Origin: Nitrosarchaeum sp.
GTDB taxonomy: Archaea; Thermoproteota; Nitrososphaeria; Nitrososphaerales; Nitrosopumilaceae
Reading direction: 5' to 3'
Assembly (NCBI GenBank): GCA_965223865.1
Contig: OZ245020.1
Location: 1,600,001-1,664,000 of the forward strand
DNA length: 64,000 bases
Part shown: piece by piece, positions 837 through 28,638 of the stretch
Numbering within the stretch: position 1 is the first letter of the stretch
How the letters are laid out: the number at the start of each line of letters is the position of its first letter
The notes under the pieces: model-generated
Databases searched by the model: none
What the model saw: the letters and a program-made list of their open reading frames with translations, nothing else
What the model was told of the DNA's origin: nothing
Position numbers and translations under genes: made by a program

Positions 837-3800
837 TTGGGAAACTATTGGTCACTGTCAAACATCCAAAAACCAAGTGGACATCTTGACTCTGTAAGAG
901 ATTTTTTAGGAATAACAGACAAGTCAAAGATATCATGCTGCCAGGTAATCGTACCCATATCTATTGACGTCAAGCTTGCTATACAGTCAGCTTCTAATAT
1001 TCTGGGATTGCCATCAAAGAACCCATACCACAACACAGTACGCTCCTTTGAGATCTGGTGGAACGGCGCAAAAAAGCAATTAAAGCTAGTTCTGGTATCG
1101 CATTCCCCTGAAGACTTGGAATCATTCAAGACTTCATTCTCACAAATGTATCCCAATACCACATATTCTGACCTGAAAACAATTTCACCGGAATGGTACA
1201 ACATATCAAAAGAATACAAGATATTTGACGTGTCAACTCGCCACGGTCACTACAGTACCCTGTTTGACAGGTCAAATGCCCATAGTACCATCACCAGAGT
1301 TGCAAACACGATACAGCTTGCTAATTTTGCATGGATTCAGTTTGTATTTGCACCATACAATTTTACCCCGTATCTCAAGTCTCACCACAACCAGCTAAAC
1401 CGCAGAATAAAATTTGTTACAAGCAAAAAGTTTCGTAGCTGGATTGATGAGATCAAAGATATCAAGCCATACGAGAATCCGGAAAACGGAATGGACTTTT
1501 ACAACAACTACAAGACTATGCAGTCAGACACTTCACAGAAGATGCAAAAGTCGCATGTCATCATGAGCATCAGAGGATTGTTGTCCTCATCTGAAAATAG
1601 TAATTTAGAATCAATTCCATTTGATGATATAAAGTCAAACTATGAGCATCTAACCTCATACACATACAACTATTCAAAGTTCTGCAACAAAAAACCAAAG
1701 AGAGCTGGCTCTCCAATTACAATATCCGGAGAAAAGAAACATTTTGAACGCCAATCATTATTTGAGTTAAGGCTGATTCCTGCTGCAAAAAAGTCACTTG
1801 AAAATGCAATTAGTGGCTACTTTAATGCGTCAAAACTTACCGGGGATTACAAAATTAGAAAGCCACTACCATTTCTCGTACTGAATAATGACGAGATGTC
1901 TTTGTTTGTGCACCTACCTGATGCAGTAACTACAAAAAACTTGCAGACATCAAGGAATGTCTCATTGCCAACCAAGATAACATCAAAGAAGGGATTCAAT
2001 CTAGGATATTTGCAAGAATCCAAGATTAATTTTAGCCAGTATGGTAAAATTGTAAAATCAACTGACCAACAATGCTCAGTAGTATCGCCTGCAGATTTCT
2101 CGAGGCATGGCTATATCGTGGGTGGAACTGGTTCAGGCAAGACCACACTACTAAGAATAATTGCAAAGCATCTGGAGACATCAAATCTCAATGGAGAGTT
2201 CCCAAACAGTTTCATTTACCTGGATCCAAAAGGTGATGACTCACTCAAGTTCATCGAACAGTGTGGCAAACAATCAATTGAAAACCACAACGTACACTTT
2301 TTGGATCCAATTGAAACTGATTTCTCAATCAATCCATTGGAATTACCAAGGTATTCTCCTGAGAAAAGACAAGAGACAGTGTCCCGATATGTCGGATATT
2401 TCATGGATATTCTAAAGGAGTGGTACAAACAGCAGCAGAGCTTTGTGCAGATGGAGAGAATCTTTCGCGTGTTGCTCTTTTACATGTACCAGAACAATGA
2501 TGCACCAACTTTTTTGGACATGTATGATATCATAATAAACATCCAAGAAGAACAAGAAAAGTTTCTGCAGATAATGTTCAAGGCATTAGGGATGCCAGAT
2601 TCAGAAGCAATGAAGCAAGCTTTGACATCAATTGCAACATTACGTCCTGAATCATTTGTGCCATTGCTAAACAGAGTTGAGCAGTTTGCAACAGACCCAA
2701 TACTAAAAAAGGTGTTTTGTGTCAGACATGGAACCGTAAAGTTTGAAGATTTGATAAAACCAAACCAGTACACAATAGTCAGGATATCATCGCTACACTT
2801 GGCGCACCACATACAACCATTGGCAATCCAAGCTTTTGTCATAAAGTTGTGGTTTACCATACAGGAAAGAGCATCTCACACCACAGAGAATGACAGAAAC
2901 TATGTCATTCTAGCTTTGGATGAGTTCCAGATAGTATCAGATTTGCATGTGTTGCCGATGATACTATCGCAAGCGAGATCATATCGTCTTGGGTTGTTGT
3001 TGGCACACCAGACTACGGCTCAAATTTCAGACTCTTTACTAGAAGAAATAACTGGAAACTGTGGGACTCAGCTAGCCGGAAGAATATCAGGCAAGGATGC
3101 ATCAAAACTTGCAAACATCTGGGATCCTCGATTCTCAAAGGAGATTCAGCAGCAGCTAGCCTCGCAAGAAGACTATCACTGGACCATCAAGATGAGAGCA
3201 GAACCAGGCGAAGAACAGCCCACACCACTCCAGTTCTGGTTGCACAACCCGCCACCAAATCTCAATGAGAATGGGCATTTTCTTGATAATTTTATCTCAA
3301 AGCAAAAGAAACTGTATGGGAATTATGATGGAGATGATGACAAAAAAGAGAGTTCATTTGATGAAGATGACAATTCCTCCATTTTACAGCAAAAACAGAT
3401 TCAAAGAGACAGGTGGATGAGACACATCACAGTTTCACTTCCTGCAAAAGAGCAATGGCAAATAATGGTGGCATTGCACAAAAACAAGAAGAGTCCACTC
3501 CTGCTAACTGAAATCACAGAGCAAGTCAGAGCTGAGACACGTGATGATGTCATATCTATACTAAAGAAGATGATAAAAAATGGAATTGTAGAAAAGGATG
3601 ATTCAACCCGGAATGTAAAATATTTTCTGTCCAAAAAGGCTGTCAAGAACTATTTCACATTTGATGATACTAAAATTGGAACAGCTAAAGACATTTCAAG
3701 AATAACACAAAAGGTCATAAAAAATTATCTGGACAAGGGAGTGTTCATCACCATAGCATCTCAGAATATTGAAAAAGACAAGTATCGCCCTGACCTGATT

Positions 3801-4013
3801 GGATATCATTATGATGAGGAAAAATCAATCAGTATAGAGATAGAGTCGGCAAGTGAATTGACAAGCCATCCAGAACATGTCCGACTCAACATGGAAAAGT
3901 GGAAGGACATGGGATTTGACATGTGTCATTGCTGGTCTGAAAGCAAGAAACTATTGGAGGTTTATGATTACCAGGTAACGGACAAGAAAAATGTCAAGGC
4001 ATTTCTAATTTAA
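837..4013 (+). CDS. VirD4/TraG-like type IV coupling ATPase with C-terminal wHTH and PD-(D/E)xK-like domain
   Basis: Walker A HGYIVGGTGSGKT, YLDPKGD, INPLE, Walker B LALDEFQ, SQARSYRLGLLLAHQ; C-terminal RPDLIG...ISIEIES. Confidence 0.85.
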   Translation: MGNYWSLSNIQKPSGHLDSVRDFLGITDKSKISCCQVIVPISIDVKLAIQSASNILGLPSKNPYHNTVRSFEIWWNGAKKQLKLVLVSHSPEDLESFKTSFSQMYPNTTYSDLKTISPEWYNISKEYKIFDVSTRHGHYSTLFDRSNAHSTITRVANTIQLANFAWIQFVFAPYNFTPYLKSHHNQLNRRIKFVTSKKFRSWIDEIKDIKPYENPENGMDFYNNYKTMQSDTSQKMQKSHVIMSIRGLLSSSENSNLESIPFDDIKSNYEHLTSYTYNYSKFCNKKPKRAGSPITISGEKKHFERQSLFELRLIPAAKKSLENAISGYFNASKLTGDYKIRKPLPFLVLNNDEMSLFVHLPDAVTTKNLQTSRNVSLPTKITSKKGFNLGYLQESKINFSQYGKIVKSTDQQCSVVSPADFSRHGYIVGGTGSGKTTLLRIIAKHLETSNLNGEFPNSFIYLDPKGDDSLKFIEQCGKQSIENHNVHFLDPIETDFSINPLELPRYSPEKRQETVSRYVGYFMDILKEWYKQQQSFVQMERIFRVLLFYMYQNNDAPTFLDMYDIIINIQEEQEKFLQIMFKALGMPDSEAMKQALTSIATLRPESFVPLLNRVEQFATDPILKKVFCVRHGTVKFEDLIKPNQYTIVRISSLHLAHHIQPLAIQAFVIKLWFTIQERASHTTENDRNYVILALDEFQIVSDLHVLPMILSQARSYRLGLLLAHQTTAQISDSLLEEITGNCGTQLAGRISGKDASKLANIWDPRFSKEIQQQLASQEDYHWTIKMRAEPGEEQPTPLQFWLHNPPPNLNENGHFLDNFISKQKKLYGNYDGDDDKKESSFDEDDNSSILQQKQIQRDRWMRHITVSLPAKEQWQIMVALHKNKKSPLLLTEITEQVRAETRDDVISILKKMIKNGIVEKDDSTRNVKYFLSKKAVKNYFTFDDTKIGTAKDISRITQKVIKNYLDKGVFITIASQNIEKDKYRPDLIGYHYDEEKSISIEIESASELTSHPEHVRLNMEKWKDMGFDMCHCWSESKKLLEVYDYQVTDKKNVKAFLI

Positions 4014-4333
4014 AACACTTCATCTAATGGATTGTAACTATTGGTATCATCTTGCTTTTCCTGCATAGGGGTTTTTGATTCTAATTGTTTTTCATCAGTT
4101 GTTTCTGGATTGATCTTTTGAATCTTTTCAATCTCATTTTTTGATAGCTTGTGGTTTATTTTTCGTACACCAAATGTTGCATCATTAACCAGTTCAACAT
4201 ACAGAAAACTGCCTGAATGGATATTCATCTTTTTGACGATTTCAGATGGAATGCTAAAACACAACGAACCGCTGCCCTCACCCCATACATTTCTGATGAA
4301 GCAATATGACGGTTTACTACTGCTGATTCTCAT
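4010..4333 (-). CDS. AbrB/MazE/SpoVT-like DNA-binding protein
   Basis: GSGSLCFSIPSEIVKKMNIHSGSFLYVEL motif; start moved to ATG 4333, 27 bp downstream of TTAAATACAAA at 4360 (minus strand). Confidence 0.7.
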   Translation of the reverse strand: MRISSSKPSYCFIRNVWGEGSGSLCFSIPSEIVKKMNIHSGSFLYVELVNDATFGVRKINHKLSKNEIEKIQKINPETTDEKQLESKTPMQEKQDDTNSYNPLDEVF

Positions 4334-4362
4334 AGCATGACATATTTCATTTGTATTTAACC

Positions 4363-4406
4363 TCCTGACTGTCAGGATAATCCGGACTGTCATGACCATC
4401 CTGACT
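4363..4406. repeat. 18-bp-period array of palindromic boxes TCCTGAC-T-GTCAGGA (operator or oriT candidate)
   Basis: 4363-4377 tcctgactgtcagga (perfect inverted repeat), 4381-4395 tccggactgtcatga, 4399-4406 tcctgact. Confidence 0.75.
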
Positions 4407-13069: not shown

Positions 13070-15025
13070 GTGAAATTAAATCCATTTGCAGACAAACAAT
13101 CTGTCAAGAAAAACTCTGAAAAAAATAATCCAAATAAAAAACAACACATACCATCATCAAAGAAAAAATCATCCCCCCACAAGTTTGCATTCAGTTACAG
13201 CATAATCCCTACAAACTTTATCAATCTGTCAGAAGAGGCCCAGATACAAAGACTTGGACAATTCTTTGACATTCTCAATGTTATTGATGACCGTATCAAA
13301 ATCACAATGTCAAGGAGGATGGTGCCAATTACAGTGGAAGGACAAATTCAGAATATGCCTGTAATGCAGGTGCACCTTGAATCACATACCCCAATTGCCG
13401 ATACCTTGGAGCAAAACAGGCTAGAGTACATCTCAGGTATTACCCCTCCACAATTTCAGATAAAAAAAGAGCATTTCTCCATGATGGAACTTGTTGAGAT
13501 GATTCCAGATGAGACAAACAGTGATGACGACAATGCCAACACTGGAGAGAAAATATTCTCAAGAACATTTACGCTTGATGGAATCCCTGCTACTCTGCCT
13601 TATGCATGGATAACCAAAGTCTTTGACATCTGCTCTCAGATACAAATGTGGTACAATCCGCTTGACAAAGACGAGGCAATAATCAGGATGGTCCGATTCA
13701 AAAACATCATCTATGACGATGCAAAATCCAACAGGGCAACATCGGAGTTATTCAAGAGAGCAGATAATGCTGAAAACTCTTTGAGAAAAGACACAACACG
13801 ACTCTATGAGGTTATCGTAAACTGCACTGTAATTGGACAAGACAGGAAATCACTCAAGGAAAACTGCAAGACATTCAAGAAACACCTCAAGAGGTATGGC
13901 GGGCATTTTAGTGCAATTTCTGCCAAACAAGCAAGCATGCTGTATGAAGGATTTGGAAAAAAGATAACTTTTGACCGTGGCTCCTGTGCAATCTTGTATT
14001 CGTTTGCATCAGCTGACATGCTAGAGATTCCTGATGGCATCCCATTGGGAATCAACATGGACTCCAAGGGTCCGATAATATTTGACATTGGAAAACGCAC
14101 CAACTACAACATTGCAGTGATTGGCAAGTCAGGTTCAGGAAAGTCATTTACTGTCAAGATTTTGCTGAATCGTTTGTTGCAAAGGTTTCCTGATTCACAT
14201 GTTTATGTGATAGACCCAATGGGGGAATACTCCAAGATTGCTGACTTTTTTGGAATGGATGTACTGTATCTCAAGGATGAAAAAGATCAGCTTGGTTTGG
14301 ATCCGTTTGTTTTGCTGGAACCATTGGATGCAGCAGACATCTTATCTGAGATTACAAACGCGCCTGATGATGTAAAGAGACAGTTCCAGACATACTGTGG
14401 AAAGGCCAGAACCTTTGAGGAATTCTTTGAAATGATTCCAAAAAAATACAAGGACAGCCTTATCAATCTGAAGAAAGGTCCACTGTCTAGAATAATTCTG
14501 GGCAAACCAAAACTAAACTCTCAGAAAAAAGTGATAATGTCAATGGAAGGGGCAACAGGATCTGAGACAGAACAGATGATTTTGTTGTTACTGTTAAACA
14601 AAATATTCAAGATTTGCAACGACTTGCCTGCAAGGACAAGAAAGATTGTCTTGATAGATGAGGCCTGGATGCTGCTGCGAATGAGGAATGCTGCAAAGTA
14701 TGTCAACATGATTGTTCGCATGGGACGGAAACTGAACATCACCTTTGGATTCATCTCCCAAAGACTGGAGGACATCTCAAAGGAAGATGACTCTGGAATT
14801 GGCAAAATCATTGACAACATGGAGACCAAAATCATCTTGGGTCTAGAGGAACAAGCAGCAGAGACTGCAAGAAATGTCTTGAGATTGTCTGATTCTGAGA
14901 CAAACAAAATCCGTGCATTTAATGCAGGACATGCGTTGTTTCTCACAAAGAACCATAGGATTCACGCAAAGTTTATGCCAACGACACAGGAAAAAGAGAT
15001 GTTTGATACAAGACCGTTGGAATAG
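13070..15025 (+). CDS. VirB4/TrbE-like conjugation ATPase
   Basis: GIPLG, NYNIAVIGKSGSGKSF (Walker A), VIDPMGEY, LIDEAW (Walker B), RMGRK...ISQ. Confidence 0.88.
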   Translation: MKLNPFADKQSVKKNSEKNNPNKKQHIPSSKKKSSPHKFAFSYSIIPTNFINLSEEAQIQRLGQFFDILNVIDDRIKITMSRRMVPITVEGQIQNMPVMQVHLESHTPIADTLEQNRLEYISGITPPQFQIKKEHFSMMELVEMIPDETNSDDDNANTGEKIFSRTFTLDGIPATLPYAWITKVFDICSQIQMWYNPLDKDEAIIRMVRFKNIIYDDAKSNRATSELFKRADNAENSLRKDTTRLYEVIVNCTVIGQDRKSLKENCKTFKKHLKRYGGHFSAISAKQASMLYEGFGKKITFDRGSCAILYSFASADMLEIPDGIPLGINMDSKGPIIFDIGKRTNYNIAVIGKSGSGKSFTVKILLNRLLQRFPDSHVYVIDPMGEYSKIADFFGMDVLYLKDEKDQLGLDPFVLLEPLDAADILSEITNAPDDVKRQFQTYCGKARTFEEFFEMIPKKYKDSLINLKKGPLSRIILGKPKLNSQKKVIMSMEGATGSETEQMILLLLLNKIFKICNDLPARTRKIVLIDEAWMLLRMRNAAKYVNMIVRMGRKLNITFGFISQRLEDISKEDDSGIGKIIDNMETKIILGLEEQAAETARNVLRLSDSETNKIRAFNAGHALFLTKNHRIHAKFMPTTQEKEMFDTRPLE

Positions 15026-15200: not shown

Positions 15201-18200
15201 TTGATTGTGAAGGTTTTAGAACTTTTAGAAGAGGAACTTCCAAAGTATATTGAAGAAGTAAAACTAAAACATTCTGAAAATGCCAAAGCAGTTGCATTTT
15301 CATCTTTCATTCAGAAAGTTTTTGATATTGAGTCTAAAGATCTAGATTTTGAAGTTCCAATTAAAACTGAAGTATTAGAAATGAGAGGTAGAATTGATGC
15401 AGTATTTGGAAATTTAATAATTGAATTTAAGAAAGATTTGTTAAAAAGCCTGGAAGAAGCAAAAGATGAATTAGAAAAATATTTTCAAGCGTTTAAAGAA
15501 AGATATTCAGATGCAAATTATCTTGGAATAGCTAACGATGGTATTAGATTTCAAGTATACCAACCGATTTTTGAAGATAAAAAAATTAAAGAAATTGAGA
15601 AAATTGATGAAATAAATTTAGAAAACAGTTCACCTAGAGATGTTTTTTTATGGTTCGATTCTTATTTTTTTACTTCTGAAAAAATAATTCCTACTTCAGA
15701 TGATCTAAAAAAAAGATTCGGATTAGATAGTCCTACATTTTCAGCAATGAGAAGACAGTTAGAAGAATTATTTAACAAAGTTTTCGAATACAGACCTGTT
15801 AAAGTAAAGTATGATAGTTGGGCTCGTTATTTAGAAATTGTTTATGGAGACAAACCAAATGAGAAAAAACTTTTTTTCAAACATACTTATCTCTCAACAT
15901 TTGTGAAATTACTTGTTCATATTAAATTAACAAAAAATTCTCAAAGGCAAAATCACTCAATTGTGCCTATTCTTTTTGGAGATACATTTACTCAATATGG
16001 AATTAATAATTTTCTCGAGGAAGATTTTTTTACTTGGATAATGTTTGTGACTATTCGTAAACAAGCAAGTAAGATTTTTGAAAAATTACTTGACGAGCTT
16101 TATGTTTATGATTTAGACAAGATTGATGAGGATGTTTTAAAAGAACTTTATCAAGAGTTGGTTGATCCCGATGTAAGAAAGCTTTTGGGTGAATTTTACA
16201 CGCCTGATTGGCTTGCGGAGAAAATGATCGATGAATCTCTGCAAAAAAATCCTTTGTCAAGTGTAATGGATCCTTCATGTGGTTCAGGGACTTTTTTGTT
16301 TAAAACCATTAGATACAAAATAGATAGACTAAAAAAAGATAGATTATCCAATTCTGAAATTCTTAATCACATAGTTGAAAATGTGATTGGTTTTGACGTA
16401 CATCCATTAGCAGCTATTATTTCAAAAACTAATTATCTTCTAGCACTTCGTGATTTGTTATCTTCAAAAACAGGCTCCATAAGCATACCTGTTTTCTTAA
16501 GCGATTCTCTCAAGGTTCCAACTAAAAAAATGGATGTTGCACTGGGCGTTACATTATTCGAATATACTGCTTTAGATAAAAAATTTGTATTTCCAGTAGA
16601 TATTGCAAAAAATATGCAAAAAATGGATCAGGTGATTGATAGCTTACGAACTCATGGAATAGAATTTGAAAAAATCTATGATAGAAAATATGAATCTAGT
16701 TATGTAGACAATACTGTAATAGATGGAGCTTATGAAAATCTTGTCCAAAGTTTTAAGCGATCATTAGTGAAGGTTGTTAGTAAATCAGAATTAATAATTT
16801 TGGAACAAAATGTAAAAACTTTATTCGATCTTATAAAAGAAGAATCAAATTCAATTTGGACTTATGTTCTTCGAAATATGTACAAACCTATTGCAGTGTC
16901 TTATCGAAAGGTTGATCTCTTAATTGGAAATCCTCCATGGTTAGGATTAAACAATATGAAAAATGAGGAATATCAAGACTACCTAAGAGAACGTAGTAAA
17001 CATTATCTACTTACAGAAAAGAGAAAAAGTCAAAATATTTCTAACTTGAATCTTGCTACATTATTTTTTGTTCAATGTGTAGATCAATATTTGGATAATA
17101 AAGGAAAAATATCTTTTGTGATGCCTCAAGGAATTCTTTTTGCATCACAACATGCTAATTTTTTGAAATTTGAAAAAATTCCTATAAAATTAACTCAAAT
17201 TTATGATTTAGAAAAAGTTACTCCTCTTTTTAGAATATTATCATGCGTAATTTTTGGTACAAAAGGTTCAACAACGGAATATCCAATAACATCTTATGAT
17301 GTGAGCGGCAATTTACCGTCAAACAATTCCAATTTAGAAACAGCAAAGTCAGTATTAACATTCAAAAAACTAGAATATTCTCCTGTAGAAAGAAAGGAAG
17401 AAAAATCATTTTATTATGATAGATTTTCTCAAGGCGCCCAAATTATTCCTAGATGTTTCTGGTTTGTAGATCTCTTAAGTGATAGTTTTCTTGGTTTTAA
17501 CCCCGAAAAACCTCTTGTTGAATCATCTGAAAATAAAGATGCTAAGCATCCTTGGGATAAAATTAGGCTCAAAGGTAATGTGGAAAAACAATTTCTTTCT
17601 ACGTCAATTTTAAGTAAAGACGTTGTTCCATTTGGAAATCTACCTCGAAGAGTAATTGTTGTACCATTACTTATGGATGAACACAATGTCAAATTACTTG
17701 ATAATTCGCAACAAATTGAAATTAGTGGATTATCAATTTCAAAATATTTAGAAGATGCAGAAAAAAAATGGGAGAAAAATGCACCCGTAAAATCCAGAAA
17801 AAATATGACCATTTATGATAGAATTGATTATCAAAAAGATCTTTCTTCACAAAATCCTTTTCAGGGATACACGGTACTTTATGTGAAATCAGCAACTTAT
17901 CTTGCTAGTTGTGTTATAGAAAATAATGAAATCAGTTTAATCCCAGTTGGTGAAAATAGTTTAAAGATTAAAGGTTTTTTTGCTGAAGGAACAACATATT
18001 TCTTTACAACTGATTCTAAAGAGGAGGCATACTATCTTTGTTCTATTTTTAATTCAAAAACCCTAGACGAAAAAATTAAACCATTTCAAAGTAGAGGTAT
18101 GTTTGGCGGAGCAAGAGATATTCATAAGTTGCCTCTTTCATTTAATATCCTTAAATACGATTCTTCAAATAAAATCCACAAATTGCTGTCTGACGAAGGA

Positions 18201-18341
18201 ATAAAATGTGCAAAAACTGTTAAACAAAATCTTTCTGGTTTATCAACAAAATCATCTGGTCAATTAAGAAAAAAAATTCGAACAATGCTTGAAAAAGAAT
18301 TAGACATAATAAATGAAAAATCGAAACAGCTATTAAAATAA
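15201..18341 (+). CDS. Type IIG/IIL-like restriction-modification fusion (REase + N6-adenine MTase + TRD)
   Basis: N-terminal RIDAVFGNLIIEFK (PD-(D/E)xK), GEFYTP, DPSCGSGTF (motif I), IGNPPW (motif IV), long C-terminal TRD. Confidence 0.9.
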   Translation: MIVKVLELLEEELPKYIEEVKLKHSENAKAVAFSSFIQKVFDIESKDLDFEVPIKTEVLEMRGRIDAVFGNLIIEFKKDLLKSLEEAKDELEKYFQAFKERYSDANYLGIANDGIRFQVYQPIFEDKKIKEIEKIDEINLENSSPRDVFLWFDSYFFTSEKIIPTSDDLKKRFGLDSPTFSAMRRQLEELFNKVFEYRPVKVKYDSWARYLEIVYGDKPNEKKLFFKHTYLSTFVKLLVHIKLTKNSQRQNHSIVPILFGDTFTQYGINNFLEEDFFTWIMFVTIRKQASKIFEKLLDELYVYDLDKIDEDVLKELYQELVDPDVRKLLGEFYTPDWLAEKMIDESLQKNPLSSVMDPSCGSGTFLFKTIRYKIDRLKKDRLSNSEILNHIVENVIGFDVHPLAAIISKTNYLLALRDLLSSKTGSISIPVFLSDSLKVPTKKMDVALGVTLFEYTALDKKFVFPVDIAKNMQKMDQVIDSLRTHGIEFEKIYDRKYESSYVDNTVIDGAYENLVQSFKRSLVKVVSKSELIILEQNVKTLFDLIKEESNSIWTYVLRNMYKPIAVSYRKVDLLIGNPPWLGLNNMKNEEYQDYLRERSKHYLLTEKRKSQNISNLNLATLFFVQCVDQYLDNKGKISFVMPQGILFASQHANFLKFEKIPIKLTQIYDLEKVTPLFRILSCVIFGTKGSTTEYPITSYDVSGNLPSNNSNLETAKSVLTFKKLEYSPVERKEEKSFYYDRFSQGAQIIPRCFWFVDLLSDSFLGFNPEKPLVESSENKDAKHPWDKIRLKGNVEKQFLSTSILSKDVVPFGNLPRRVIVVPLLMDEHNVKLLDNSQQIEISGLSISKYLEDAEKKWEKNAPVKSRKNMTIYDRIDYQKDLSSQNPFQGYTVLYVKSATYLASCVIENNEISLIPVGENSLKIKGFFAEGTTYFFTTDSKEEAYYLCSIFNSKTLDEKIKPFQSRGMFGGARDIHKLPLSFNILKYDSSNKIHKLLSDEGIKCAKTVKQNLSGLSTKSSGQLRKKIRTMLEKELDIINEKSKQLLK

Positions 18342-19867: not shown

Positions 19868-20944
19868 TTGACTGAAAAAAAAGACAAGATCTCAATTTCC
19901 AGAAGACAACGAAATGCAGCATACAAAGCATGGGAAACAATGAAAAGACGGAAATGGGAATCAAGAGGAGAATTTTCTGAGAAGATAAAAGATTACATGA
20001 CATTACAACAGATTTCCAGAGTCAATCATCCAGAGTTAGAAGAGAAGATTCCTGAAAAAATAGCAAAGGGGATTGTAAGTCTTTTTCATAAAACACCAAA
20101 AGATATTGCTTGTGGTAAATTTTGGGAGTTACGTTGGGCTTATGGTTGCCCTTTGGATTGTAACTATTGTTATCTTCGTGGTACAATGAGAGGAAATATG
20201 AAACCAAGTCCATTAAAATCGGAACACGTTCTAAAAGCCATTGATGAGGCATTTGCAAAAATTAAAACACCATCTATTTTCAATACAGGTGAGCTTTCAG
20301 ATTCTCTGATGTTTCCATCGTTGATGGAGAAGATTGTAGATAAATTTGAAGAACAATCAACGCACAAAGTTGCATTACTTAGTAAAATGGGAACTCATCA
20401 TATTGATTTCCTTATGAAAAAATTACGAAAACAAACAATATGTTCATGGAGTATAAACGCAATTCCAGTGGCAAAGAGATGGGAAAAGGCCGCTACTGAT
20501 CCATACGATAGAATAGCTGCTGCATCGATGGTTGATTCGATGGGATATGACACACGAATACGAATTGATCCAATTTTTCCAATCTTCGAATGGAAAAAAC
20601 ACTACGAAGAAATTATAGATTATTTATTCTCAAAGTTGGAGCCTAGAAGGATAATTTTAGGCACACCTAGAGGATTATGGAAGACAATAAAGTATGCAAA
20701 GAATGCCAAAATAGACATGTCATGGGCAAATTTCTTCAATGAAGATTCTAGCTGGGGTAAAAAATTAGAATTTAACCAAAGAATGGAAATCTACCAATTT
20801 TTGATGGATAAATTAACATCAATCGGCTATTCACAATCCAAAATTAGCATGTGTAAGGAAACTACAGAAATGTGGTCTAAAATTGGACTCGATTACAAAC
20901 CATTAACCTGCAGTTGCTATGGAAAAAATGCGTTATCTATTTAG
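19868..20944 (+). CDS. Spore photoproduct lyase-like radical SAM protein
   Basis: GCPLDCNYCYL (CxxxCxxC), FNTGELSDSL, WSIN, RIDPI, MCKE as in the SplB family. Confidence 0.8.
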   Translation: MTEKKDKISISRRQRNAAYKAWETMKRRKWESRGEFSEKIKDYMTLQQISRVNHPELEEKIPEKIAKGIVSLFHKTPKDIACGKFWELRWAYGCPLDCNYCYLRGTMRGNMKPSPLKSEHVLKAIDEAFAKIKTPSIFNTGELSDSLMFPSLMEKIVDKFEEQSTHKVALLSKMGTHHIDFLMKKLRKQTICSWSINAIPVAKRWEKAATDPYDRIAAASMVDSMGYDTRIRIDPIFPIFEWKKHYEEIIDYLFSKLEPRRIILGTPRGLWKTIKYAKNAKIDMSWANFFNEDSSWGKKLEFNQRMEIYQFLMDKLTSIGYSQSKISMCKETTEMWSKIGLDYKPLTCSCYGKNALSI

Positions 20945-22055
20945 CAAATTCAATCATACACTTTTCTGGATAATCTAATCGTTTAGTAGATCGATCAGTT
21001 ACGTTAATAATTTTGGGTGGAATGGCTTTTTCCAATGGTCGTAAAACTTTGGTTTTAGTAAAAAGAAAAGGAGTTTCGGTAATCACATACTCATGAATTT
21101 CTTCTAAAAGAACCGTTTTTCCTTTAAAATGTTCAAAAATCATTTTTCCAACCTCTGAAATCCAGTATTCTTCATCATTATAATCTAACAAAAACGTTTG
21201 ATTAGGATTTGTTCTGTCTGAAAATTTGTAATAACCGCCTTGGCCAACTTTCTGCATGGCTCTTTTGATTACCTCTAAACCTCTCCAATGTTTTGTTCCA
21301 TAAACCAGATGGTAAATTGTATTGTTATCCGAACCAATCATTTCAAATGTTCTAACAAATTTTGCACCACCAACATTTTTTAGTTGTTGTACGTACAATT
21401 CTAAAAGAAACTTACGTTTTTCATCGGGTGTTTCATAATCATCTACGTCTTTCCAAGAAGAAGATGCATACAATCCATTCAATGCATTTTCTCGTAGCTC
21501 GTCATGAAATCTAAGTACGAAGCCAGACATGAAAGTAACAAGCACTTCACATTTGTTGTAGTTTAACATTCTTTGTATAAGGTTCATTGGCAAACCAGAA
21601 AATCCAAATGGATCTAAAAAAGCAAAAGTTGGAGCTAACTTTGCACCATCATTTTCTAATTGGTCTAAAGTTTCTTCAAGGGATTGTGCAAATTCAGATT
21701 TTTGAACATGGTAGAGTATTTGATCATCTTCTTTGTTTTCAAGTTCTGGGAATTTAGATTTTAACACTTCTTGTAATTTATTACATCTGTCCTTATCTTT
21801 TTCAATAAACCAAAAAACAATTTTTTTGAAATGTTTTCTCATAGAATGTTCTACAGCGGTACGTATAGCGATTACAGGAGAACCTTCTTCACCTTTTGAA
21901 TAAACCCCAGGGCCAGCAAATCCATCAAGATATACTATTCGCCCATCAAATCTTGAAAGTATAGGAAACCAAGGTTTGAGATATTCACGAAGAATTTCAT
22001 GTTTAGCGTTGGTATGGGGATCAAGAGGCCAAACTGTCGAATTAATTCCGGACAA
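20937..22055 (-). CDS. tcmP: Three-Cys-motif partner protein TcmP (SAM-dependent methyltransferase fold)
   Basis: HTNAKHEILREYL, YLDGFAGPG, FAFLDPFG, YHLVYGT; adjacent to the DUF5131 gene. Confidence 0.85.
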   Translation of the reverse strand: MSGINSTVWPLDPHTNAKHEILREYLKPWFPILSRFDGRIVYLDGFAGPGVYSKGEEGSPVIAIRTAVEHSMRKHFKKIVFWFIEKDKDRCNKLQEVLKSKFPELENKEDDQILYHVQKSEFAQSLEETLDQLENDGAKLAPTFAFLDPFGFSGLPMNLIQRMLNYNKCEVLVTFMSGFVLRFHDELRENALNGLYASSSWKDVDDYETPDEKRKFLLELYVQQLKNVGGAKFVRTFEMIGSDNNTIYHLVYGTKHWRGLEVIKRAMQKVGQGGYYKFSDRTNPNQTFLLDYNDEEYWISEVGKMIFEHFKGKTVLLEEIHEYVITETPFLFTKTKVLRPLEKAIPPKIINVTDRSTKRLDYPEKCMIEFAK

Positions 22056-22198: not shown

Positions 22199-23038
22199 TT
22201 GGCTGATAATTCTGCAATAGAATGGACTGAAGCCACATGGAATCCAACTACTGGATGTACTAAAGTCTCTTCAGGATGTAAGAATTGCTATGCTGAAGCA
22301 CTGTCGAAAAGGCTCAAAGCCATGGGAATTAAAAAATACAAAAACAACTTCAAATTCACTCAACACAATAATGAAGTAGAGTTACCGCTTCGTTGGAAGA
22401 AACCTAAGAAAATTTTCGTAAATAGTATGTCTGATCTATTCCATGAAGAAGCAGAAATGGAATTTATTGCAAAATGTTTTGATACTATGACTAAAGCCCA
22501 TTGGCATGTCTACCAAGTATTGACTAAGCGACCATCAAAGATGGCAGAATTTTCAAAATTATTTTATAATTATTTTGGATTTCAAATACCAAATAATATT
22601 TGGATGGGCACAAGTATAGAAGACAACCAAACAACGTGGAGAATAAAAGAACTACGTAAAGTAAAATGTTATACTAAATTCATTAGTTTTGAACCATTAT
22701 TAGAAGACATAAACAAAGTAAACTTGTCAGGTATTGACTGGGCAATCATTGGAGGAGAAAGTGGCCATCATTACAGACCAGTAGAAAAAAAGTGGATTCA
22801 AAACCTAATCAAGCAGTGCCAAAAACAAAATGTCAAAGTATTTTTCAAACAATGGGGAGGATTTCGACCTAAAGCGGGGGGTAGAGTAATCAATGGAAGA
22901 ACATATAGTGAATATCCAAAATTAAAACCAGTTGTTAATAAACAACAAGCAATGAAAATGGATGCCATAAGAAAAGAAAAAATAAAATTCAAGAAAATCA
23001 AGTTCAAAAAAACACTTCCTCCAATTTTGAATTTATAA
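22199..23038 (+). CDS. DUF5131 / phage Gp37-Gp68 family protein (three-Cys, radical-SAM-like)
   Basis: SAIEWTEATWNPTTGCTKVSSGCKNCYAE, FVNSMSDLFH, LTKRP, SFEPLL, WAIIGGESG, FFKQWGG. Confidence 0.92.
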   Translation: MADNSAIEWTEATWNPTTGCTKVSSGCKNCYAEALSKRLKAMGIKKYKNNFKFTQHNNEVELPLRWKKPKKIFVNSMSDLFHEEAEMEFIAKCFDTMTKAHWHVYQVLTKRPSKMAEFSKLFYNYFGFQIPNNIWMGTSIEDNQTTWRIKELRKVKCYTKFISFEPLLEDINKVNLSGIDWAIIGGESGHHYRPVEKKWIQNLIKQCQKQNVKVFFKQWGGFRPKAGGRVINGRTYSEYPKLKPVVNKQQAMKMDAIRKEKIKFKKIKFKKTLPPILNL

Positions 23039-24299: not shown

Positions 24300-26156
24300 G
24301 TGAAGTTTGATTTCCGTTCATCGCATGAAGGGTTTGTCTTTTCAATTCCGTTGATGATTGGGATTGCATTTATCATATTTGCCGCACTAATTGGGATATC
24401 CCAGGGGTTCGTAGAGGTGGGAGGTTTGCTTGTACCTGAACTAATCACGGACATGCCCACCTTCTTTGACTATGATGAAATAACTGGGGATATGATACTT
24501 GATGGTGCTGGCAATCCTGCAACAAACGAGAGAATTGACCTTTACTGGTTGTTGGTGTCAATTTCGGTAATAATTTTGGTTGCCGTTGCAATGATTGCAG
24601 TTCTGGGTTATGTCTTTGAGGTAGCAAGATGGATTCATCCCGGCACTGCAATTGGAATCCTTAAAAAAATTGTCTTGTTTCTGATTGTATTTTTGGTGTT
24701 CCCATTTGTGTGGGATATTTACGCGATAATCATTGAGAATTTTTCATTATTTTTGCTTGATCCGTTTGGCTCAGGCGATGATCCTGCAGACAGGACGCTG
24801 GAGCTATGGCGTGCAATGGGAAGTGTAATACCAGTAGATATCTTTGATCTTGATGCATGGGCCTCGGCATTCACTGATCCTGGTGCATTTGCACAAGGAA
24901 TGATGAAAGATGTGTTTCTGGCATTGTTCAAGGGATTTGCGGTAATGTTCATGACTGCAATGATGTTTATCATCAGTACAGTCAGAATATTACTTACAAT
25001 AATCATTGCAATGTCGATTCCGTTATTGCTCACATTGAGTCTGATTCCAATGTTCAGGTCAGTCAAGGACATGCTTGTAAAGAACCTGATTGGGTTGTCT
25101 ATTGCGCCAGTATTTTCCGCCCTTGTATTGACTACGGGTCTTGCATACTTGGATTCGACTACCTTGTCTGCAATGCAGGACTGGTTTGCGTCCCTTGCAG
25201 TGGGATTTTTGGCAGTATTTTTTCCAGTGATGTTGGCACCAATGCTGGGAAACATTGTGACACAAGTTGGACAGATGATGTCTACTGCAATAATGGCAGG
25301 CTCCATAGTTGGAAGCATGGCAGGACAGGGTGCACTAGGTGGTGTTGCAAAGTCGTTGGGCAGTACAGCAGATGGAGCTGCTGCAATGGCTGGAATGAGT
25401 GGGGCTAGTGCAGGTCTTGGAAGTCTTGGAGGCAAAGAAGGCTCTGGAATGAGACCACCAATCTCTTCACAGGAACTAGGAATGGCAGGAATGGGTTCCC
25501 CTTCAATGGGACGTGTGTCAAGTGGAAGTACACCAATGGCTTTTGGAAATGATGCATTAACAAATACACCTGGAGTAATTGAGCATACACCAATTTCATT
25601 TGGAGAGAAATTCAAGACTGGAGTAAAAGGAGCTTTTTACGGCGGAAGTACAGGACTTGCCGCAGGAAGTCTGAAGGCAGCAGGGCACGTAATGCATATG
25701 GAACAGGCAGTAAATCCGATGGTCCATGACATTCAGAATGCTGGAATGAACAAAGCATTTGAAGCAGGACAGATCAGTGCAGCAAATCATTCCCTCAATG
25801 ACATCTCAAAATCCATGGCAATGATGGATCCACCACAAATCAATGTGGAAACAACACAGGCCATAATGCCTGAGACTGGAGAATCCGCCATGGCAGTAAC
25901 GAATCCAGGAGATTTAATCGACAATATGGAGAATCTTGACAGAGTTCACAATAGGTTTGGGACACTAGAAGGACAACAAGAATATCTCAATGTTCAAAGA
26001 AATAATGTACCTAATTTTGAATCTATAAAACCAGAGATACAGAATCAGATTGATCAAAGACTAGTTGAACAATTAGAAAAGCACCCATTCAGTGCAGAAA
26101 AGATTGTTGATGAAGCTAAAGTGAGTCAAGGACAGACTTTTCAAAATAGAATATAA
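24300..26156 (+). CDS. VirB6/TrbL-like polytopic conjugation channel protein
   Basis: About 8 TM helices in the N-terminal half, then a Gly/Ala/Met-rich tail typical of TrbL; ICE promoter 27 bp upstream. Confidence 0.78.
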   Translation: MKFDFRSSHEGFVFSIPLMIGIAFIIFAALIGISQGFVEVGGLLVPELITDMPTFFDYDEITGDMILDGAGNPATNERIDLYWLLVSISVIILVAVAMIAVLGYVFEVARWIHPGTAIGILKKIVLFLIVFLVFPFVWDIYAIIIENFSLFLLDPFGSGDDPADRTLELWRAMGSVIPVDIFDLDAWASAFTDPGAFAQGMMKDVFLALFKGFAVMFMTAMMFIISTVRILLTIIIAMSIPLLLTLSLIPMFRSVKDMLVKNLIGLSIAPVFSALVLTTGLAYLDSTTLSAMQDWFASLAVGFLAVFFPVMLAPMLGNIVTQVGQMMSTAIMAGSIVGSMAGQGALGGVAKSLGSTADGAAAMAGMSGASAGLGSLGGKEGSGMRPPISSQELGMAGMGSPSMGRVSSGSTPMAFGNDALTNTPGVIEHTPISFGEKFKTGVKGAFYGGSTGLAAGSLKAAGHVMHMEQAVNPMVHDIQNAGMNKAFEAGQISAANHSLNDISKSMAMMDPPQINVETTQAIMPETGESAMAVTNPGDLIDNMENLDRVHNRFGTLEGQQEYLNVQRNNVPNFESIKPEIQNQIDQRLVEQLEKHPFSAEKIVDEAKVSQGQTFQNRI

Positions 26157-27159: not shown

Positions 27160-28488
27160 TTAGTTATCAGTCCTTTGCTTGAGCAATTCCTCAAATATCA
27201 AATCAATCTTGTCTCCAAGTTTTTCCACATTCTCCAGTCTATGTACAATAGAATCCATAGTGTGCTGTTGGGATACGGTAGTCTTTTCTAACAGTTTTGC
27301 ATCAAGAATATAACCGCATTTTGCACACCTCTGTCTTTCAGGGGTGTTATCGTGCTCACAACGTGGGCATTTTTTTAGCTGGGCAATGGCATTAGAGTTG
27401 TCTTTTTGCTTTATTCCGTGAAGCTCCAAAATTGCGTTTTCTGCATCCTTGCCAGAAAGATGCACGTATCTTGCAGTCATCTTTGATCCTGGTTTCCAAT
27501 TGCCGTACACACGCAGCGTCTGATCAGAGAGTTTTTTTGCCAAGTGTGTAAGTTGAGAGTGCCTCATCAGATAGTTCCAGACTCGTTTTTTTATTCCCGC
27601 TTTTTCCTTGCATCTTTTGAGATGCTCTCGTAGATAACCATAAGATACACGCTTTGTTTTTGAGGACTTCCATAAGGAATACCATAACGGTGCATTAGGG
27701 TCATCTTTTAGTGGGTGCTCATCAAGCCACTCCAAGAGAGGCTTGAATGACACTACCAGTGCAACACTTTTGCTTCCAGTCTTGCCAAATGTACTGACCA
27801 TGACATGGTCATCCCTAAAGTCAATGCCACCAACTCGCAAATGCAACAGCTCTCCTGGACGAAATGCCCCTTCAAACAATACCCAAAACATGGCCCTGTC
27901 TCGCTTGTTTGTAGTCTGGTTGATTATTGCATTTAGTTCATCAAGGGTAAGCAGATCTTTTGGCTGTATTCCTTGTTTGTTTTTGTCCTGATATCTTGAA
28001 GGAGAGATCCACTCAACCTCGTTTACGTATCCTCTCTTCTTGTCCCCAATGTCTCCAGTCTTTGCAAAGTGGACCAATCTCTGTAAGGTCAATGCATATG
28101 CAGACTTTGTCTCACCGGAATAGTTTTTTTGAGATATTAGATTAGAGAGTATGGACTCGCATTGGATTTTTTTGGCGTTTTTTAGCTTGAGGTGCAGTTT
28201 TTCAAATTCTGCAAGTATCAATGGGAGTCGATCGCCGTAATAGCAGAGGCGTGCATCAGATAATCCTACTAGTTTTAGTTTGTCAAGGAATTGGATACAT
28301 TTTTGTCCTTCATGCATCTTGGCAAAACGATTTTTTGCCCATCTTATCTTTCTTGGATAGTTGTAGATATCACCAGAATCATCATAACCCAGAGTCTTCT
28401 TGTCATTGCCAGCATCGCTTTTTACCACATGAACAGATGTCTGGTTTTCATTTAAGGCAGGATTTTTGTCAGAAGGGAGCAACAACAT
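27160..28488 (-). CDS. Tyrosine recombinase/integrase with C-terminal Zn ribbon
   Basis: RDRA...EGAFRPGEL, GKTG, YLMRHS, GNW...MTARYVHL; CPRC...CAKC. Confidence 0.93.
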   Translation of the reverse strand: MLLLPSDKNPALNENQTSVHVVKSDAGNDKKTLGYDDSGDIYNYPRKIRWAKNRFAKMHEGQKCIQFLDKLKLVGLSDARLCYYGDRLPLILAEFEKLHLKLKNAKKIQCESILSNLISQKNYSGETKSAYALTLQRLVHFAKTGDIGDKKRGYVNEVEWISPSRYQDKNKQGIQPKDLLTLDELNAIINQTTNKRDRAMFWVLFEGAFRPGELLHLRVGGIDFRDDHVMVSTFGKTGSKSVALVVSFKPLLEWLDEHPLKDDPNAPLWYSLWKSSKTKRVSYGYLREHLKRCKEKAGIKKRVWNYLMRHSQLTHLAKKLSDQTLRVYGNWKPGSKMTARYVHLSGKDAENAILELHGIKQKDNSNAIAQLKKCPRCEHDNTPERQRCAKCGYILDAKLLEKTTVSQQHTMDSIVHRLENVEKLGDKIDLIFEELLKQRTDN

Positions 28489-28497
28489 AATAGTATA

Positions 28498-28579
28498 CGC
28501 CAGGTAAGGGATTCGAACCCCTGCACGCTTACGCGTAGCCGTTTTCGAGACGGCCGCCTTACCACTTGGCTAACCTGGC
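28498..28579 (-). tRNA. tRNA-Ser (anticodon CGA); ICE attachment site
   Basis: Reverse complement GCCAGGTTAGCCAAGTGGTAAGGCGGCCGTCTCGAAAACGGCTACGCGTAAGCGTGCAGGGGTTCGAATCCCTTACCTGGCG: acceptor stem, GCCGT/ACGGC anticodon stem, long variable arm, TTCGAA loop. Confidence 0.96.
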
Positions 28580-28638
28580 ATTTAATCTGAGATTATCTCC
28601 ATAATAAAGCAAATCAGAACTCGAGAAAATACCAAAAA

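Follow-up and report, generated by a model that had tools for sequence, protein, structure and literature searches.

Type IV coupling proteins (T4CPs) of bacteria, such as VirD4, TrwB, TraD, and TraG, are pump ATPases that receive their DNA from a separate relaxase. To our knowledge, neither a relaxase nor an origin of transfer (oriT) has been found for archaeal conjugation, in any archaeal element, since 1995, the year in which transfer of pNOB8, said to be the first archaeal conjugative plasmid, was reportedly shown. We analyzed a stretch of 64,000 nucleotides from Nitrosarchaeum sp. (contig OZ245020.1, positions 1,600,001 to 1,664,000 of the forward strand; hereafter the window), which includes part of an integrative and conjugative element (ICE). 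Judged from domain matches and predicted structures, the product of the gene at 837..4013 is a coupling protein with a built-in C-terminal module, composed of a domain with the winged helix-turn-helix fold (wHTH) and a domain with the restriction-endonuclease-like, PD-(D/E)xK-type fold. A first-pass annotation of the window, made from the sequence alone, had proposed this C-terminal part as a candidate for the missing archaeal relaxase.

The absence of an identifiable relaxase from archaeal conjugation, which the annotation had mentioned as known, is restated in papers from 2019, 2023, and 2025 (PMC6563490, PMC9905601, PMC12857230), and because no archaeal relaxase was found, authors have proposed either a different mechanism or the transfer of double-stranded DNA. 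Thaumarchaeal ICEs described by Krupovic et al. 2019 carry VirB4 and VirD4 homologs and reportedly yielded no relaxase candidate (PMC6563490). The traG gene of the Sulfolobus islandicus plasmid pM164 is essential for transfer, and the integrated plasmid transfers flanking DNA unidirectionally, in an Hfr-like manner, from a plasmid origin (PMC9899855), which implies a defined start; the words "nuclease", "relaxase", "oriT", and "nick" do not occur in that paper. According to a review, conjugation of pT33-3 likewise depends on its VirD4-like gene (PMC12857230). No description of the C-terminal domain was found in the literature covered on archaeal conjugation and TraG/VirD4, a coverage that did not extend to Catchpole 2023 and Francia 2013.

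The Nitrosarchaeum protein resembles bacterial T4CPs in its P-loop ATPase of the hexameric pump type, in the Pfam families shared with them (TrwB_AAD_bind, TraG-D_C, T4SS-DNA_transf), in being encoded together with a VirB4 homolog on a conjugative element, and in having orthologs that are essential for transfer. It differs in that N-terminal membrane helices are not predicted, in an N-terminal region of about 400 residues that belongs to no known family, and in the C-terminal module, which was found in archaeal records only among 72,556 plasmids.

Other described systems share individual parts of this architecture. FtsK is a pump whose C-terminal winged helix, the gamma domain, reads a DNA motif to load or orient the motor, and phage large terminases are machines made of a pump and a nuclease. 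In TraB of Streptomyces, also an FtsK/HerA-type pump, a C-terminal helix-turn-helix loads or orients the motor at clt (PMC5365140). FtsK and TraB differ from the protein described here in having no nuclease domain, and they move double-stranded DNA without a dedicated cut. HerA pumps work with NurA in end resection, and HerA-NurA has been suggested to generate the substrate (Beltran et al. 2023, PMC9905601). Both HerA-NurA and the terminases couple a ring ATPase to a nuclease that prepares the translocated DNA end, but their nucleases have the RNase H fold rather than the PD-(D/E)xK fold and come without a wHTH domain. For DNA donation by the Thermus element ICEth1, the HerA/FtsK-type ATPase TdtA needs a NurA-like nuclease and the type IIG enzyme Tth111II; the authors of that work raise the possibility that origins of transfer are labeled by restriction-like enzymes, and the NurA-like nuclease is proposed to trim the substrate (PMC5365140). 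Like the element in the window, ICEth1 is relaxase-less, bounded by an integrase, and situated in a tRNA gene, and each carries a type IIG or type IIG-like enzyme. In ICEth1, however, each nuclease has its own gene and differs in fold or family, TdtA lacks both a DNA-binding and a nuclease domain, and transfer has many start sites.

Domain structure of the coupling protein

The central part of the 837..4013 product exceeds the Pfam cut-offs for TraG-D_C (residues 690-754, 29.0 bits against 22), DUF87/HerA (residues 402-582, 27.5 bits against 23.2), and TrwB_AAD_bind (23.7 bits against 20.5). By these family matches it belongs to the VirD4/TraG/TrwB coupling-protein group of FtsK/HerA-type ATPases, and the order read in the first-pass annotation, an ATPase domain followed by an acidic linker, is thereby upheld (Table 1). 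Neither Pfam nor NCBIfam has a family matching residues ~1-398. In the alignment of full-length homologs the protein is conserved from residue 1, and the N-terminal region is missing from homologs of 620-670 amino acids (aa). A membrane helix is not predicted, the highest Kyte-Doolittle mean over 19 residues being 1.48, under the threshold of 1.6, in what is a crude test rather than a dedicated transmembrane predictor.

The last 207 residues (852-1058) were modeled by AlphaFold2 from a 44-row alignment with a mean pLDDT of 96.0 and a pTM of 0.90. Residues 17-90 of this model superpose on the MarR-type regulator 7wze_A with a VIA-align Z of 13.3 and a root mean square deviation (rmsd) of 1.4 over 72 residues. 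Sequence methods point the same way: wHTH families of Pfam exceed their cut-offs in three homologs (P0047, P0063, P0042), Penicillinase_R matches the tail of the window's protein weakly, at sub-threshold E-values of 0.005-0.14, and a profile of the module family, run against the sequences in the Protein Data Bank (PDB), finds wHTH proteins only (AspA, HlyU, and AdcR/MarR chains, E 1e-3 to 4e-3). The tail of the ATPase thus contains, in the predicted structure, a wHTH of MarR/ArsR type, a three-helix bundle with a beta wing. The segment LLLTEITEQV...KYFLS, in which the annotation had seen a wHTH-like pattern, falls within it. The interval assigned to the whole module at that stage, 3450-4013, was slightly narrow, as the wHTH extends over roughly 3438-3659 and the fold of the nuclease over roughly 3690-4010.

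A fold search with the whole 207-residue model returned a match list filled by wHTH regulators, and the nuclease part was therefore folded separately. The AlphaFold2 model of residues 942-1058 alone has a pLDDT of 95.2 and, by DSSP, the order of elements H-E-E-E-H-E-H-E, with H12-25, E29-32, E46-50, E55-62, H64-82, and E88-93 in model numbering. The predicted alpha-beta-beta-beta-alpha-beta core is that of the PD-(D/E)xK superfamily. In a VIA-align search of 48,161 representative chains, for which the tool states a background Z of 7-8, only three chains reached a Z of at least 8: AF1548 (1y88_A; Z 9.5, rmsd 3.2, 101 aligned residues), the nuclease domain of PaqCI (8em1_A; Z 9.1, rmsd 3.1, 108 aligned), and NucS (2vld_B; Z 8.9, rmsd 2.9, 97 aligned). 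Among the best 50 matches listed, 28 are nucleases by title; further matches include Card1/Can2/Cdn1, Type ISP and type II restriction enzymes, Hjc, VRR-NUC, FokI, HamA, McrC, Vsr, TnsA, tRNA-splicing endonucleases, and, in row 50, BamHI. AF1548, PaqCI, NucS/EndoMS, Card1/Can2, and Hjc share the core with our domain at Z 6.7-9.5; they differ from it in sequence, with identities of 7-13%, and in context, which is repair, restriction, or CRISPR ancillary function. Sequence comparison does not reach this domain: for residues ~950-1058 Pfam gives nothing even at E≤10 and NCBIfam no family, and a PDB sequence search matched the nuclease part neither with the single sequence nor with the module profile. 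No single score carries the fold assignment; it depends on how consistent the list is, on the matches extending over the whole domain, and on where the motif falls. At the level of a confident model, the domain has a restriction-endonuclease fold, as the annotation had supposed for its segment RPDLIG...ISIEIES (residues 984-1004).

Conservation of the putative active site

Conservation was counted over representatives at 50% clustering that cover each column. The residue at the "PD" position, D986, is kept in 81 of 85 representatives, and the two acidic residues at the "(D/E)xK" position, E1001 and E1003, in 87 of 90 and 88 of 91, followed by S1004 (85/91). Other columns are retained to a similar extent: Q976 (80/83), E1007 (79/90), H1011 (84/90), N1018 (84/92), and K1021 (83/91). 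D986, E1001, E1003, H1011, N1018, and K1021 are therefore present in 91-97% of representatives, while overall identity to the query drops to 22-30%. That polar and charged residues are retained at such low identity argues for a functional center. An ExE in place of (D/E)xK occurs in the active enzyme BamHI. D...ExE would be a BamHI-like metal-binding triad, and together with the Lys, His, and Asn it would form a conserved, putative nuclease center that is apparently intact.

Occurrence of the module and its fusion to the pump

With residues 850-1058 as the query, a word-indexed search yielded 26 proteins of the same architecture. Each of them matches the region over 100% of its length, with identities of 48-100%, and 23 are 960-1083 aa long. 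A phmmer search with the last 207 residues against 1.84 billion representatives found 99 proteins with E≤1e-3, of which 63 have E≤1e-10 and 20 have E≤1e-30. The match lies mostly at the C-terminus, in proteins of 620-670 aa or of 960-1270 aa. Recurrence in 99 representatives at 50% clustering, with a conserved polar core, makes the module more than a chance arrangement. In a Pfam scan of 24 representatives, 15 were longer than 600 aa and 14 of these 15 contained T4CP families; the exception is a 2644-aa repeat protein (P0123) whose match to the module is marginal (E 7.4e-4).

Genome contigs were scanned for loci with one peptide pattern, which returned records from Nitrosopumilaceae/Thaumarchaeota only and is thus uninformative on other phyla. 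Of 37 loci obtained, 35 were kept once L040 and L041, both partial matches, had been set aside. In 29 of the 35 the module is the last part of a frame that stays open for 600 aa or more, and three of the six shorter frames are truncated by a contig end. The motif [ST][IVL]E[IVL]E[ST] is kept in 34 of the 35. The module occurs in 14 of 301 sampled genomes of the window's phylum and in 7 of 43 within its own family, and its scatter over families in this sample fits the expectation for a mobile gene. For one of 10 representative clusters an organism label was available, Nitrososphaerota.

The genome that contains the window encodes a second full-length copy of the protein, a 1056-aa frame at C1:734293-737463, 69% identical over the whole length and carrying the same C-terminal module with the motif SISVEMEST. 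Two short fragments of the module lie at C1:1871753-1871896 and C1:651419-651601. The genome probably holds a second ICE and remnants.

Archaeal conjugative plasmids extend this distribution. In tblastn searches of the 72,556 plasmids, the module of the window's protein matched a single record, the Sulfolobus islandicus conjugative plasmid pHVE14, inside a 1092-aa "ATP-binding protein" that has T4CP Pfam domains of its own. BLASTP aligns the window's protein to this pHVE14 TraG over residues 372-1058 with an E-value of 1e-51, including RPDL...IEIES...HPE...NM.K. When the module was taken from P0102, which is more central in the family, 13 records matched, all archaeal: nine from Sulfolobus, two from Saccharolobus, one from Acidianus, and one from Thermococcus, among them pNOB8 and the 103-kb pT33-3 of Thermococcus nautili strain 33-3. 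The same query matched no bacterial plasmid, and tblastn with the C-terminus of a high-GC representative (P0085) matched no plasmid at all. The module profile scores E 2.1e-29 for pNOB8 TraG, 5.5e-28 for pHVE14 TraG, and 4.4e-25 for the pT33-3 protein, and all three retain the D, ExES, H.EQ, N, and K positions. The conjugative plasmids with the module span two archaeal phyla. In their TraG/VirD4 proteins the module is internal and is followed by a further ~140-450 aa of no known family, rich in Ser, Thr, and Asn in pHVE14; pHVE14 and pNOB8 each have a 166-aa gene, encoded on the opposite strand, that overlaps with the end of traG. By sequence, then, the module is a conserved part of TraG/VirD4 in the archaeal conjugative plasmids examined, which makes the finding broader than the first-pass annotation had it.

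Search for a relaxase and comparison with MOBC

Seven Pfam relaxase families, namely Replic_Relax (PF13814), Relaxase, TrwC, MobA_MobL, TraI_2, Rep_trans, and Mob_Pre, were searched against six-frame translations of the whole genome. Besides MOBC, these families represent HUH, HD (MOBH), and Rep_trans (MOBT) relaxases. Each gave zero matches, while control genomes were matched. Pfam scans of 24 open reading frames (ORFs) in the window and of 43 ORFs in the 45 kb upstream found no relaxase family, nor did NCBIfam scans of the 28 ORFs that lack a Pfam family. The annotation had recognized no HUH or MOB relaxase in the window, and the same now holds, for these families, in the part of the element that it had not seen and in the rest of the genome.

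The annotation had also likened the layout of the module to the Replic_Relax family. Relaxases of this group, MOBC (TraX of pAD1, MobC of CloDF13), begin with a wHTH, after which comes a PD-(D/E)xK-type domain with D...ExE and then a Lys; they are free-standing bacterial proteins of ~260 aa, whereas the archaeal module is fused to a pump. They are described as PD-(D/E)xK relatives for which a covalent intermediate is reported as not detected (PMC12857230). CloDF13 was of no use as a reference, having no annotated mobC and six ORFs of at least 150 aa without a Pfam match, and pTEF1 was used instead. Its TraX-like protein, a replication-relaxation family protein typed MOBC in PLSDB, adjoins a T4CP gene and served as positive control for PF13814 (28.5 bits against a cut-off of 25.3). 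It has an N-terminal wHTH (HTH_45 at 43-85), and the invariant columns of its family are D155, E173-I-E175, and K179 (D...FEIEL..K). The resemblance is therefore real in the order of wHTH and nuclease and in the D...ExE...K pattern, and stops there: PF13814 matched neither the whole protein nor residues 872-1058 (E≤1), nor the two halves (E≤10), nor 22 short homologs (E≤1), and an hhalign comparison left the catalytic domain unaligned. On these two grounds, the domain cannot be assigned to Replic_Relax/MOBC by sequence. A language-model lead from the Atlas, a cluster in which 33% of members have PF13814, scored 0.86, under the reliability line of 0.9. By analogy, the domain might function in the manner of MOBC relaxases.

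Proposed role and competing explanations

A DNA-cutting role for the module is plausible, both from the conserved residues and from the predicted fold. We give about even chances to a reading in which the wHTH reads a site on the element, the nuclease domain cuts there, and the pump on the same chain takes the end, replacing a separate relaxase. This reading also draws on the fusion to the pump, on the presence of the module in conjugative plasmids of two phyla, on the need for traG in transfer, on the lack of the relaxase families searched for, and on the precedents of MOBC relaxases and ICEth1. Once the element is excised, the wHTH would bind its site on it, the D...ExE center next to the wHTH would hydrolyze one or both strands there, and the hexameric pump on the same polypeptide would engage and translocate the new end. 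The module would be ancestral, conserved in archaeal conjugative TraG/VirD4, and cutting linked to the pump would stand in for the separate relaxase of bacteria. The data show the domain architecture, the fold as a model, the conserved putative active site, the fusion in the plasmids examined, and the lack of the seven relaxase families. That the domain is catalytic and site-specific, how it cuts, and that it has a role in starting transfer is what we infer here. Since PD-(D/E)xK enzymes hydrolyze DNA, no covalent 5' adduct is expected, and the protein would be an analog of a relaxase rather than a relaxase in the strict sense. A bolder version, in which the coupling ATPase itself acts as the relaxase, reading the origin, cutting with a BamHI-like D...ExE center, and pumping as a terminase does, all of it ancestral in Nitrososphaeria, Sulfolobales, and Thermococcales, is in our judgment possible and slightly doubtful.

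A number of results weigh against cutting by the module or against its generality. With the nuclease model, Foldseek returned zero matches at E≤0.001, its best rows being Bax1, NucS, and PaqCI at 2.6e-3 to 7.4e-3, and the best VIA-align Z exceeds the stated background only moderately. The canonical Lys position holds E1003, the conserved K1021 sitting in the next helix. Between the module family and the MOBC alignment, hhalign aligns the wHTH only (65 columns, probability 55.9%), so that no sequence or profile link joins the nuclease part to MOBC/Replic_Relax. No candidate target site of the module was established: the two adjacent palindromes at the downstream end of the locus are unique to it within the window and are not enriched, 7 of 100 shuffles giving at least 4 matches. 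The element has other possible cutters of DNA, a type IIG-like enzyme in the window and a GIY-YIG/DUF123 protein upstream of it, and many of its ORFs belong to no family and could hide another nuclease. Finally, most representatives lack taxonomic labels, so that a statement on "all archaeal conjugative elements" would extrapolate from the plasmids and genomes sampled.

Alternatively, the module may only recognize and recruit DNA, its restriction fold being silent, and load the pump on a specific site of the element much as the FtsK gamma domain or the TraB helix-turn-helix at clt would, with another protein making the cut or with intact double-stranded DNA being moved. The wHTH is the best-supported part of the module, the canonical Lys is replaced by Glu, and the structural neighbors listed include restriction folds that lack catalysis, those of Rpb5-type RNA polymerase subunits and of TIP26. 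What speaks for a catalytic domain is the retention of three acidic residues with the His, Asn, and Lys, a pattern expected of an active site rather than of a scaffold, and the recurrence of D...ExE in the MOBC family as well as in BamHI; we consider a recruitment-only role unlikely, and still a serious contender. The domain might also be an active nuclease that serves another step, such as degradation or trimming of the non-transferred strand or of the donor copy, processing of DNA arriving in the recipient, or exclusion of competing DNA. End resection by HerA-NurA (PMC9905601) and the trimming proposed for the NurA-like enzyme of ICEth1 (PMC5365140) are precedents for this, and the failure to find a specific target at the palindromes fits it too. 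A wHTH, however, always precedes the domain, which suits recognition of a site better than bulk degradation, and the unidirectional, Hfr-like transfer of pM164 implies that its start is defined, so that we rate a role at another step as quite improbable. Finally, ATPases paired with PD-(D/E)xK nucleases are common in defense systems, Hachiman HamA, Card1/Can2, and McrC are among the structural neighbors, and the protein has no predicted membrane anchor, as would be the case for a HerA-type ATPase-nuclease defense module carried as cargo and not involved in conjugation. Against such a module stand the T4CP families matched, the VirB4-like gene 9 kb away, the setting in an element that is bounded by an integrase and also encodes a prepilin peptidase, TFIIB, and a VirB6/TrbL-like ORF, and the genetic requirement for the orthologous traG genes in transfer, which together make it very improbable indeed.

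The nuclease-like center sits on TraG/VirD4, a protein already shown to be essential, and the gap is reduced to point mutants and a cleavage assay. If the domain cuts, conjugation would be started in a new way, by a single chain that holds both the pump and the nuclease. The domain would then help to map archaeal oriT sites and would serve as a marker by which archaeal conjugative elements can be recognized. If the module does not cut, its wHTH would still be a likely determinant of DNA loading.

The integrated element and its surroundings

The genome of the window has 2.01 Mb, is 99.98% complete, and encodes CdvA and other genes of thaumarchaeal type. The features of the locus are collected in Table 1, together with the corresponding frames of the three plasmids.

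Table 1. Features of the coupling-protein gene, of the element that carries it, and of plasmid counterparts. Positions without a prefix are those of the window.
Feature	Position	Strand	Remarks
VirD4/TraG-like coupling ATPase gene	837..4013	+	1058 aa; listed start TTG; end includes the stop codon
N-terminal region	837..2030	+	residues ~1-398; no known family, no predicted membrane helix
Walker A / P-loop GGTGSGKT	2121..2144	+	residues 429-436; invariant in alignment of full-length homologs
Walker B region LALDEFQ	2910..2930	+	residues 692-698; at start of TraG-D_C match
Acidic linker LYGNYDGDDDKKESSFDEDDNSS	3312..3380	+	residues 826-848; columns variable and gapped in full-length alignment
Predicted winged helix-turn-helix domain	3438..3659	+	residues 868-941; AlphaFold2 model and fold match
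Predicted restriction-endonuclease-like (PD-(D/E)xK-type) domain	3690..4010	+	residues 952-1058; AlphaFold2 and VIA-align
D986 ("PD" position)	3792..3794	+	directly before strand 2 (DSSP)
E1001-I-E1003-S1004	3837..3848	+	end of strand 3, "(D/E)xK" position, Glu replacing Lys
H1011, N1018, K1021	3867..3899	+	conserved; helix after strand 3
AbrB/MazE-like small ORF	4010-4399	-	convergent; overlaps stop codon of VirD4-like gene
Two adjacent imperfect palindromes TCCTGACTGTCAGGA / TCCGGACTGTCATGA	4363..4395	.	within 5' end of, or upstream of, AbrB-like ORF
VirB4/TrbE-like ATPase	13070..15025	+	Pfam AAA_10, DUF87, P-loop_TraG; 9 kb from VirD4-like gene
Type IIG-like restriction/modification enzyme	15201-18341	+	1046 aa; N6_Mtase/Eco57I-type; directly after VirB4-like gene
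Radical-SAM, spore-photoproduct-lyase-like gene	19868-20944		
TcmP "three-Cys-motif partner"	20937-22055	-	TIGR04474, 7.6e-62
DUF5131	22199-23038		5.9e-90
618-aa ORF, probable VirB6	24300-26156	+	no Pfam/NCBIfam family; nearest Atlas clusters TrbL/VirB6, 0.91-0.93
Tyrosine integrase	27160..28488	-	element end; abuts tRNA-Ser
tRNA-Ser	28497-28580	-	
GIY-YIG/DUF123 protein	L002:4527-4889		upstream of window
P-type ATPase with HMA domain, region	L002:11766-14219 and neighbors		C1 ~1585766-1588219
pHVE14 TraG/VirD4 frame	L004:3745-7020		
pNOB8 TraG/VirD4 frame	L043:1691-4765		
pT33-3 TraG/VirD4 frame	L042:2643-6752		

Downstream of the coupling-protein gene, the palindromes, which lie in the region that the annotation had put forward as a candidate substrate, may serve as an operator or as a site of processing; the former is no less likely than a role as oriT. 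The small AbrB-like ORF beside them was compared with the 166-aa gene that overlaps the end of traG in pNOB8, as a possible shared partner of the coupling protein. The pair was rejected, with an E-value of 0.027 over 23 residues and no common family.

The 618-aa ORF near the integrase is probably the VirB6 of the element, and the three genes from the radical-SAM gene through DUF5131 look like ICE cargo. A direct repeat of 68 bp (89.7% identical), comprising the 5' end of the integrase gene and the 3' end of the tRNA gene (window 28441-28508), lies 42 kb upstream, 42070-42003 bases before the window, and the tRNA end recurs as an 11-bp copy at a distance of 31.5 kb, 31471-31461 bases before the window. 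Such a pattern points to att sites in tandem or nested, the element being ~60 kb long and an older remnant lying next to it. The part of the element upstream of the window encodes a prepilin peptidase, TFIIB (L001:12057-12992), a Cdc48-type ATPase, and metal-handling cargo, in which the P-type ATPase with an HMA domain is accompanied by TauE, a Na/sulfate symporter, a rhodanese, and a cupredoxin. The element belongs to the thaumarchaeal ICE class of Krupovic et al. 2019 (PMC6563490), and the TFIIB and cargo genes of its left part match the published content of those elements.

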